From a virus (lineage: Duplodnaviria > Heunggongvirae > Uroviricota > Caudoviricetes), in the IMG/VR virus record IMGVR_UViG_2671180846_000009: a stretch of 5,645 nucleotides of DNA. One strand, 5' to 3'. Positions 1,446-1,797 of the stretch are shown one piece after another (within the stretch, counting starts at the first letter, position 1; every line of letters starts with the position of its first letter). The position numbers and the translations under genes were made by a program. Below the pieces are notes generated by a model that was not told where the DNA came from, made no database searches, and saw only the letters and a list, made by a program, of their open reading frames with translations.

Positions 1446-1628
1446 ATGCGAAAGTTTAAAATAATTATTGAAACGGGAATAGCCGGTGGAGATTTCGAGG
1501 ATGAATTCGAAGTGGATGATGATGCGACGCCTGATGAAATACATGACGAAGCAAAAGATATTTTCTTTAACTACTGCAATTATTCATATCACGAAATAAA
1601 AGACGAAGAGGAAGAACAAAATGGCTGA
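1446..1628 (+). CDS. tiny highly acidic protein (60 aa, about one third Asp/Glu)
   Basis: ORF immediately after the SD-hairpin element. Its stop TGA (1626-1628) overlaps the next start ATG 1621 (ATGGCTGA junction). Confidence 0.5.
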   Translation: MRKFKIIIETGIAGGDFEDEFEVDDDATPDEIHDEAKDIFFNYCNYSYHEIKDEEEEQNG

Positions 1629-1797
1629 TTTTGGTTCAACTAAATACAGCGTCAGTTTTGAAGAATGGCATGAACTGTTAATGGAATATGCAGAGTTACG
1701 TGGTGGCAGTGCTGCTGATGCTGAAGCATGGCGTGATGATTATGAAGCAGGAAAAAATCCGGTCGAAGCATATTGTGATGAGTGGGGCGATGAATGA
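1621..1797 (+). CDS. tiny highly acidic protein (58 aa; MADFGSTKYSVSFEEWHELLMEYAELRGGSAADAEAWRDDYEAGKNPVEAYCDEWGDE), absent from the supplied ORF track (below its length cutoff)
   Basis: Hand translation from ATG 1621 (GAGGAAG RBS upstream) to TGA 1795-1797. The stop overlaps the ATG 1794 of the next gene (ATGA junction), and the 5' end overlaps the previous stop, so it is coupled on both sides. Confidence 0.45.
   Translation: MADFGSTKYSVSFEEWHELLMEYAELRGGSAADAEAWRDDYEAGKNPVEAYCDEWGDE

Follow-up and report, generated by a model that had tools for sequence, protein, structure and literature searches.

What do two very small, strongly acidic genes, encoded back to back, contribute to the phage that carries them? 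The question was raised by a 5,645-nucleotide (nt) stretch of viral DNA, IMG/VR record IMGVR_UViG_2671180846_000009, which is referred to in its whole length as the window (all positions are window positions, unless otherwise stated). An earlier reading made from the letters alone (the sequence-only reading) had placed two open reading frames (ORFs) at 1446–1628 (ORF1) and 1621–1797 (ORF2), described them as translationally coupled, highly acidic mini-proteins of an early operon, and proposed them as DNA-mimic anti-defence proteins. Both ORFs were recovered at these positions, on the + strand. ORF2, which had been absent from the ORF track, was lost there to a cut-off of 60 amino acids (aa) against its own length of 58 aa, and appears when the minimum is lowered to 30 aa.

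ORF1 and ORF2 were found to constitute a mobile two-gene cassette with sharp junctions, which is located in nin-type and early-left operons of lambdoid phages and encodes two proteins that are unrelated to each other and evolve independently. Both proteins belong to well-conserved phage families that are already catalogued. By analogy, they may be small acidic proteins that inhibit, or serve as decoys for, nucleic-acid-binding proteins of the host or of a defence system, which is the reading tentatively preferred here; as a hypothesis it is reasonable but generic.

Composition, families and predicted folds

The composition given by the sequence-only reading (about 30% Asp/Glu, with interspersed aromatic and few basic residues) holds for both proteins. 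ORF1 contains 20 Asp + Glu (33%), 8 aromatic residues and 5 Lys + Arg, with a net charge of −15; ORF2 contains 16 Asp + Glu (28%), 9 aromatic residues and 4 Lys + Arg, with a net charge of −12, and the isoelectric point (pI) is 4.05 for both. Among 56 distinct annotated proteins from two related prophage regions (median Asp + Glu 13%, standard deviation 4.7%), they rank first and second in acidity, and the third is a Gam-like nuclease inhibitor; lambda Gam is a known DNA mimic. The AT-richness relative to flanking genes that had been attributed to the pair is clear in ORF1 (36% GC) and weaker in ORF2 (43.5%), most flanking genes lying at 45–52%.

The sequence-only reading erred in stating that neither protein has a sequence-level family match. 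ORF1 is a member of the Pfam family DUF7167 (PF23768; E = 7.9e-15, 55.1 bits against a gathering cut-off of 24.4 bits), with residues 2–53 aligned to positions 1–60 of the 60-position profile, and also matches phrog_1997 (E = 9e-31); its RefSeq name is likewise DUF7167 family protein. All DUF7167 members are acidic (net charge −7 to −16), down to relatives at 37–48% identity. Repeated sub-threshold matches of members to the AnkX insertion domain (E = 0.004–0.08) are uninformative. ORF2 was assigned to phrog_519 (E = 1e-21, 78.8 bits), of whose 143 profile positions it spans only 76–137, so that its counterpart in longer members is their C-terminal domain. No Pfam-A family was matched by ORF2 at E ≤ 0.1, and 25 of its relatives gave no consistent family at E ≤ 1; the label "DUF5419" on the Morganella phage homolog was rejected, as it was not reproduced with Pfam-A. 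Neither protein matched NCBIfam, neither these two nor the 70-aa neighbour matched the PADLOC defence models at E ≤ 1, and when PDB sequences were searched with profiles of the two families, only designed proteins or noise came up. In public databases, in which each exact sequence stands on more than 1000 contigs, the two are named only "prophage protein", "hypothetical protein" or "DUF7167 family protein".

Structure prediction, which had been proposed as a check, gave ordered domains for both proteins. The AlphaFold2 model of ORF1 (predicted local distance difference test, pLDDT, 76; predicted template modelling score, pTM, 0.56) has strands at residues 2–9, 16–23 and 46–51 and a helix at 29–40, the acidic tail being less confident. 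ORF2 was modelled as a three-helix bundle (pLDDT 87.7, pTM 0.71; helices 13–27, 34–42 and 47–55), with fold matches to AAA+ lid and UBA/CUE-like bundles; a Foldseek search against BFVD returned only uncharacterised proteins of its own family. Homolog alignments were deepened using a profile of chimeric rows, each of which joined one DUF7167 homolog to one ORF2 homolog. Across the ORF2 family Thr7, Trp16, Tyr41 and Trp55 are invariant, Trp37 is invariant in the closer relatives, and the GGSAADA and GKTP segments are conserved. The median net charge of the family is −8 over approximately 50 residues, and an acidic patch (Asp33, Glu35, Asp39/Asp40, Glu42, Asp53, Glu54) is conserved in the main clade and lost in neutral members.

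Both ORFs are annotated as coding sequences in RefSeq and in phage ArgO145. In 32 distinct cassette alleles the ratio of nonsynonymous to synonymous polymorphism (pN/pS) was 0.08 for ORF1 and 0.15 for ORF2, against 0.65–6.3 in shifted frames; low values in the annotated frames only identify both as genuine protein-coding genes under purifying selection. This bears directly on the explanation that the ORFs are chance reading frames or decaying, functionless remnants, for which it can be said that they are very short, of no known function and located in highly mosaic regions, that 1 of 12 distinct ORF1 alleles has an internal stop, and that truncated or frameshifted database entries are numerous. 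Selection, homologs at 37–58% identity in distant phage families, the confident predicted folds and the existence of a curated Pfam family for ORF1 effectively refute it.

Translation of the pair

The coupling proposed by the sequence-only reading is borne out by the ATGGCTGA overlap of stop and start codons: the genes are adjacent in 158 of 158 related viral loci, and the −4 offset is identical in 157 of these. By this arrangement ORF2 is translationally coupled to ORF1. Programmed frameshifting was rejected, as no slippery heptamer can be read at the overlap, and ordinary termination–reinitiation appears the more likely mode.

ORF1 is preceded by a Shine–Dalgarno sequence whose linear distance from the start codon (Table 1) is too long; a hairpin between the two (−17.3 kcal/mol, z = −2.67) reduces the effective spacing to approximately 6 nt when folded. 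Hairpin-shortened spacing of this kind has been described for genes 38 and 25 of phage T4. Hairpin variants retain the pairing in 98% of cells, one G–C to A–U double change included, which is not beyond shuffled controls (186/500), most changes being transitions to G·U; covariation support for the hairpin is weak. An Rfam search returned nothing relevant.

Cassette junctions

Shine–Dalgarno sequence and hairpin lie within a 26-nt element, TCAGGAGGCCGCCCGAAAGGGCGGTA, which is repeated in the window (Table 1) and stands upstream of at least four different gene families, namely ORF1, the DUF4014 genes and at least two more in other prophages. In 69 distinct contexts, colinearity with the window ends approximately 27 nt 5′ of the ORF1 ATG and, for most other prophages, approximately 18 nt past the ORF2 stop. 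Since the element precedes various gene families and also marks the upstream break in colinearity, it seems to act both as a portable translation start and as a recombination junction. On the downstream side, Ead/Ea22-like and DUF551 genes have a conserved 5′ end in common (MSEI..., the first ~18 nt), which forms the junction.

A further repeat was observed nearby. An 18-nt sequence, CTGAATAA(A/T)TAAATTTAG, is found across the stop codons of both the 118-aa gene and the Ead/Ea22-like gene (Table 1), and in most related prophages the sequence before the cassette is the intergenic stretch that is found here at approximately 2446–2516. Both are apparently boundary sequences that parts of the mosaic have in common.

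Distribution and linkage of the two genes

Lambdoid prophages of Shiga-toxigenic E. coli (STEC) O26, O103 and related strains share the 701 bases round ORF1 and ORF2 at 100% identity. Among 5,426 complete E. coli genomes, ORF1 was found in 1,368 (25%) and ORF2 in 1,902 (35%). The two do not form an obligate two-gene system: these counts are unequal, distant homologs occur separately, and an ORF1-deleted variant exists. In the latter, an IMG/VR allele, an internal deletion in ORF1 leaves ORF2 to be read from the start codon of ORF1 behind the hairpin (MRKFRKNKMADFGSTKY...), so that ORF2 can persist without ORF1 even in close relatives. Homologs of ORF2 without ORF1 were also found in Enterobacter and Salmonella prophages, and beyond enterics the families are fully separate.

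Two database records with an E. coli-type cassette at 94–98% identity, "Actinobacillus phage vB_Apl-pPE4" (PP818812.1) and a "Collinsella sp." metagenome-assembled genome contig, probably represent mis-assigned hosts or contamination.

Operon context and the Ead/Ea22-like neighbour

The cassette region of the window is a nin-type accessory region in the rightward (pR) delayed-early operon. The block from the 118-aa gene to ParD also occurs in the Stx2a phage ArgO145, there in the leftward (pL) early operon, between the exo/RecT/single-stranded DNA-binding protein (SSB) genes and int. As the same block occupies a nin-type region here and an exo-to-int region there, the early operon of the sequence-only reading is correct, and the block is accessory cargo, as had also been supposed, and moves between operons. 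Promoter and terminator scans of the window gave nothing above chance, and thus neither evidence for an independent "moron" promoter nor a sign of expression from a repressed prophage.

In three lineages ORF2 or a homolog abuts an Ead/Ea22-like gene, lying 5′ of one in E. coli and 3′ of one in Enterobacter prophages and in the P22-like Salmonella phage UPF_BP1. This adjacency and the exo-to-int position in ArgO145 speak for the possibility that ORF1 and ORF2 modulate phage development or host physiology (lysis–lysogeny, induction) via host regulators, in which case ORF2 may act with Ead/Ea22-like proteins. Genes of the exo–xis region influence lysogenisation and induction, and Ea22 is pro-lysogenic (PMC3824215, PMC7093339). 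With the small lambda proteins of that region (Orf60a, Orf61, Orf63, Ea8.5, Ea22), ORF1 and ORF2 share the Stx-phage niche, the size class and early expression. They differ from them, however, in sequence: in tblastn searches of both proteins against 50,697 phage records, phage lambda was not among the matches listed, and no homology to the lambda exo–xis ORFs was seen. Moreover, both families occur in strictly virulent phages without a lysogeny decision (Vi01-like, T5-like, Guernseyvirinae, Herelleviridae). The Ead/Ea22 adjacency could reflect a functional link or be a by-product of the Ead 5′ end serving as a junction; such genes are very common here and their conserved 5′ ends are recombination junctions, so the adjacency may be incidental. 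A role in development is considered unlikely, with some weight left to it.

Relatives in other phages

Relatives of DUF7167 (37–70% identity) were found in a Klebsiella lambdoid phage, Klebsiella Guernseyvirinae, Enterococcus Herelleviridae, a Phapecoctavirus and a Pseudomonas phage; a profile scan of species-representative genomes gave only 3 DUF7167 loci. ORF2 relatives are present in approximately 200 phage records, chiefly of Ackermannviridae (Vi01-like), and further in T5-like phages, Lastavirus, a Morganella phage, P22-like phages and a member of the Autographiviridae. An exhaustive profile search of 1.84 billion proteins yielded 109 representatives of ORF2-type clusters, by which the family is modest in size. 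The genes adjoining ORF2 homologs in virulent phages are nearly all of no known function.

Some of these contexts suggest that ORF1 and ORF2 could be accessory factors of phage DNA metabolism, whose acidic tails or surfaces dock on replication or repair proteins as the acidic C-termini of SSB do. The DUF7167 gene of Klebsiella Guernseyvirinae shares an overlap with a DUF2800/PD-(D/E)XK nuclease gene, in a cluster with Nmad5, a gp2.5-like SSB and DNA polymerase; in Morganella phage Mecenats66 an RdgC-like gene is found two genes 3′ of the ORF2 homolog; ORF2-type domains are fused to the DNA-related proteins NADAR and GemA; and the cassette stands 3′ of replication genes in the window. A recurrent link between DUF7167 and exonucleases, which annotations of Klebsiella and Enterococcus phages seemed to offer, was nevertheless rejected: only the Klebsiella neighbour is a genuine nuclease, the Enterococcus "exonuclease" being a DUF3850/ASCH protein, and the other contexts, without nucleases, hold only small genes of no known function. 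As read from their sequences, neither ORF1 nor ORF2 ends in an SSB-type aromatic/hydrophobic tip, and the cassette is mobile independently of replication modules. A role in DNA metabolism is judged quite improbable.

Fusions of the ORF2-type domain

In the T5-like phages EP_H11 and IME392, a 218-aa NADAR protein has at its C-terminal end an ORF2-type domain (64% identity to ORF2); T5-like NADAR proteins mostly lack such a tail, and no NADAR gene is present in the window. Other fusions, at either the N- or the C-terminus, involve GemA of phage Mu (with a non-acidic copy of the domain), a DUF3331-like segment and several proteins without a Pfam match (the proteins with a fused domain are P0262, P0272, P0287, P0288, P0282 and P0153). 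These assorted partners suggest that the domain may be a portable binding module.

Such a module need not imitate nucleic acid. It could be a neutral docking or adaptor domain that recruits a fused or nearby-encoded partner to a common host structure, the free form then being a regulatory or competitor version. The variety of unrelated proteins that carry it at one end or the other, the length of phrog_519, of which ORF2 covers only the C-terminal part, and the existence of non-acidic copies all agree with this. Most family members, on the other hand, stand alone at 50–65 aa, and the fusions are few, several of them from single metagenomic contigs. A neutral adaptor role for ORF2 is judged quite improbable.

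Inhibitors or decoys

Both genes are located in the delayed-early transcript, ORF1 being translated from the Shine–Dalgarno/hairpin/AUG module and ORF2 following by coupling. Under the preferred reading of ORF1 and ORF2 as small acidic inhibitors or decoys, each would act as a stoichiometric protein-binding inhibitor or decoy. In lytic growth its compact negative surface would fill the surface by which a host or defence protein binds nucleic acid. This would be mimicry in a broad nucleic-acid sense, unlike that of a long B-DNA mimic such as Ocr.

Ocr (T7 gp0.3) and ArdA, DNA-mimic inhibitors of type I restriction–modification and BREX, are likewise small, very acidic (pI ~4), aromatic-containing proteins of early or delayed-early accessory regions, and ORF1 and ORF2 resemble them in charge and pI. 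No similarity in sequence or fold to Ocr or ArdA was found, nor an elongated, B-DNA-like shape. Very small acidic DNA mimics that inhibit enzymes, such as p56 of phi29 and Ugi of PBS1/2, have 56–84 residues, so that small size alone is no bar to mimicry. A resemblance to T7 Gp2, an inhibitor of host RNA polymerase (PF16857 RNA_pol_inhib, PDB 2wnm/2lmc), was examined by hhalign and rejected as homology (0.35%). Beside the cassette no helix-turn-helix "aca" gene of the kind linked to anti-CRISPRs was found, the 70-aa protein (without a Pfam match) and the Ead/Ea22-like protein having no helix-turn-helix domain.

The single specific lead for the anti-defence idea is the NADAR fusion, and it concerns ORF2 only. 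Phage NADARs (AdfN) strip DarT1-made ADP-ribose from DNA and are experimentally proven counter-defence enzymes against DarTG1 (PMC11825919); in work cited in the same paper, the C-terminal domain of DarG2 neutralises DarT2 by mimicry of single-stranded DNA. The fusion joins an ADP-ribose-removing enzyme to an acidic C-terminal domain and parallels DarG2 as cited there (PMC11825919), although the likeness to the DarG2 C-terminal domain is one of architecture only and ORF2 itself has no catalytic domain. As the ORF2-type domain is fused to NADAR, the DarT/ADP-ribosylation axis is a candidate target for ORF2.

Extreme acidity (universal in DUF7167), ordered predicted folds, purifying selection and the behaviour as accessory cargo make the inhibitor reading plausible, and the homologs in virulent Ackermannviridae, T5-like phages, Guernseyvirinae, Herelleviridae and other phages agree with it. 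DNA mimicry with an anti-defence function, as the sequence-only reading had it, is a hypothesis, plausible by analogy and uncontradicted.

Several observations weigh against it. The ordered cores comprise only approximately 45–50 residues in the models, too few to mimic beyond a few base pairs unless oligomeric. The search for remote homologs that had been suggested did find families for both proteins, but no known DNA mimic is among the profile or fold matches of either. Eight of 95 non-redundant ORF2-type domains, the GemA fusion among them, are near-neutral or basic (net charge between −2 and +2), and the conserved residues of the family (Trp16, Trp37, Tyr41, Trp55 and helix-capping Ser/Asp/Thr-Pro), when placed on the model, seem to determine the fold and not to make up a functional surface. 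The ORF2 homolog of Ackermannviridae closely follows the major capsid gene, a position that is not obviously early; the NADAR–ORF2 fusion is rare, with only 4 phage records at ≥80% coverage; and a literature search returned no paper on DUF7167 or the protein accessions and no experiment on these proteins. That the proteins are small and globular, that some relatives are not acidic and that no fold match was found weakens the general mimic argument.

A bolder version, drawn from the same analogies, would make the ORF2-type domain a portable nucleic-acid-mimic module that binds a defence or DNA-processing protein, free in the prophages of approximately one third of E. coli genomes and in Ackermannviridae and NADAR-fused, in the manner of DarG2, in T5-like phages; it would constitute a new widespread anti-defence family, with DUF7167 as a second, independent family on the same cassette. 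In this full form the proposal is considered quite unlikely.

Neighbouring genes and other features of the window

Coordinates are collected in Table 1. The gene order of the window is the same as in the prophage of strain RM10386, where replication genes (DUF1376/O-like, P) are followed by DUF1627, DUF977, DUF4406, an Ead-like gene ("RseB domain"), the 118-aa gene and the 70-aa gene, then by the DUF7167 gene, the 58-aa gene, Ead/Ea22-like, DUF4014, HNH, a 114-aa gene, convergent ParE/ParD, DUF968 and RusA.

The Ead-like gene bears a RefSeq name with "sigma-E factor regulatory protein RseB domain"; its N-terminus matches Ead_Ea22 (E = 6e-11), its MucB_RseB match is only just over the cut-off (23.3 against 22.3 bits), and the name is probably misleading. 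In the 118-aa protein (phrog_1621), a zinc-ribbon-like CxxC...CxxC segment is followed by a strongly charged, Arg/Glu-rich C-terminal segment, and all its Pfam zinc-ribbon matches are sub-threshold. The 70-aa ORF upstream of the cassette (phrog_4659) is also acidic (pI 4.5, net charge −7), aromatic-rich and AT-rich (39% GC); of 69 cassette contexts only 2 include it, and homology to ORF2 was rejected (BLASTP, E = 3.2). The convergent toxin–antitoxin pair within the accessory region is also present in ArgO145 and in the O26 prophage. Of two runs of N, the second lies between exact 47-nt duplicates within a DUF968-type gene and looks like a scaffolding or masking artefact, not biology.

Table 1 Features of the window and of related loci
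Feature	Position	Strand	Description
ORF1 (DUF7167)	1446–1628	+	60 aa; predicted beta-beta-alpha-beta core, then poly-acidic C-terminal tail (DEEEEQNG)
ORF2 (phrog_519)	1621–1797	+	58 aa; predicted acidic three-helix bundle; motif F-EWH...GGSAADAEAWR-DY-AGKTP...DEWGE
Start/stop overlap ORF1/ORF2	1621–1628	+	ATGGCTGA; read from sequence
Shine–Dalgarno-like GAGGAAG for ORF2	1608–1614	+	Inside ORF1 3′ end, 6 nt 5′ of ORF2 ATG; read from sequence
Shine–Dalgarno AGGAGG for ORF1	1417–1422	+	23 nt from ATG in linear sequence; within 26-nt repeat
RNA hairpin	1422–1439	+	7-bp G+C-rich stem, GAAA tetraloop; then 6 nt and ORF1 ATG
26-nt element, copy 1	1415–1440	+	Before ORF1
26-nt element, copy 2	2487–2512	+	Before DUF4014 gene; direct repeat, 96% identical
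Ead/Ea22-like gene	1794–2429	+	Pfam Ead_Ea22, E = 3.5e-39; ATG overlaps ORF2 stop (ATGA, 1794–1797)
18-nt repeat	1142–1159; 2422–2439		Across stop codons of 118-aa gene and Ead/Ea22-like gene
Ead-like gene ("RseB domain")	354–815	
118-aa gene	793–1149		phrog_1621
70-aa gene	1200–1412		phrog_4659
RelE/ParE toxin and ParD antitoxin	3648–3947; 3953–4210	−	Convergent pair
N runs of 50	4639–4688; 4976–5025
47-nt duplicates	4929–4975; 5026–5072		Within DUF968-type gene
Ead/Ea22 abutment, locus L171	2414–3001
Ead/Ea22 abutment, loci L299–L302	Genes ending at 4999
EP_H11 NADAR–ORF2 protein, locus L008	2506–3162		NADAR residues 16–160, ORF2-like domain C-terminal

Significance

The junction made up of Shine–Dalgarno sequence and hairpin shows lambdoid phages exchanging small accessory genes with the translation start retained. 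If ORF1 or ORF2 does inhibit an enzyme of host defence or DNA processing, a new family would be added to the anti-defence catalogue. Between a quarter and a third of sequenced E. coli genomes carry these genes, Stx2a-converting phages of STEC O26, O103 and O145 among them, and they are represented in several groups of virulent phages that are used or considered for therapy. For ORF2, the NADAR fusion points to DarT1 as a concrete first target.

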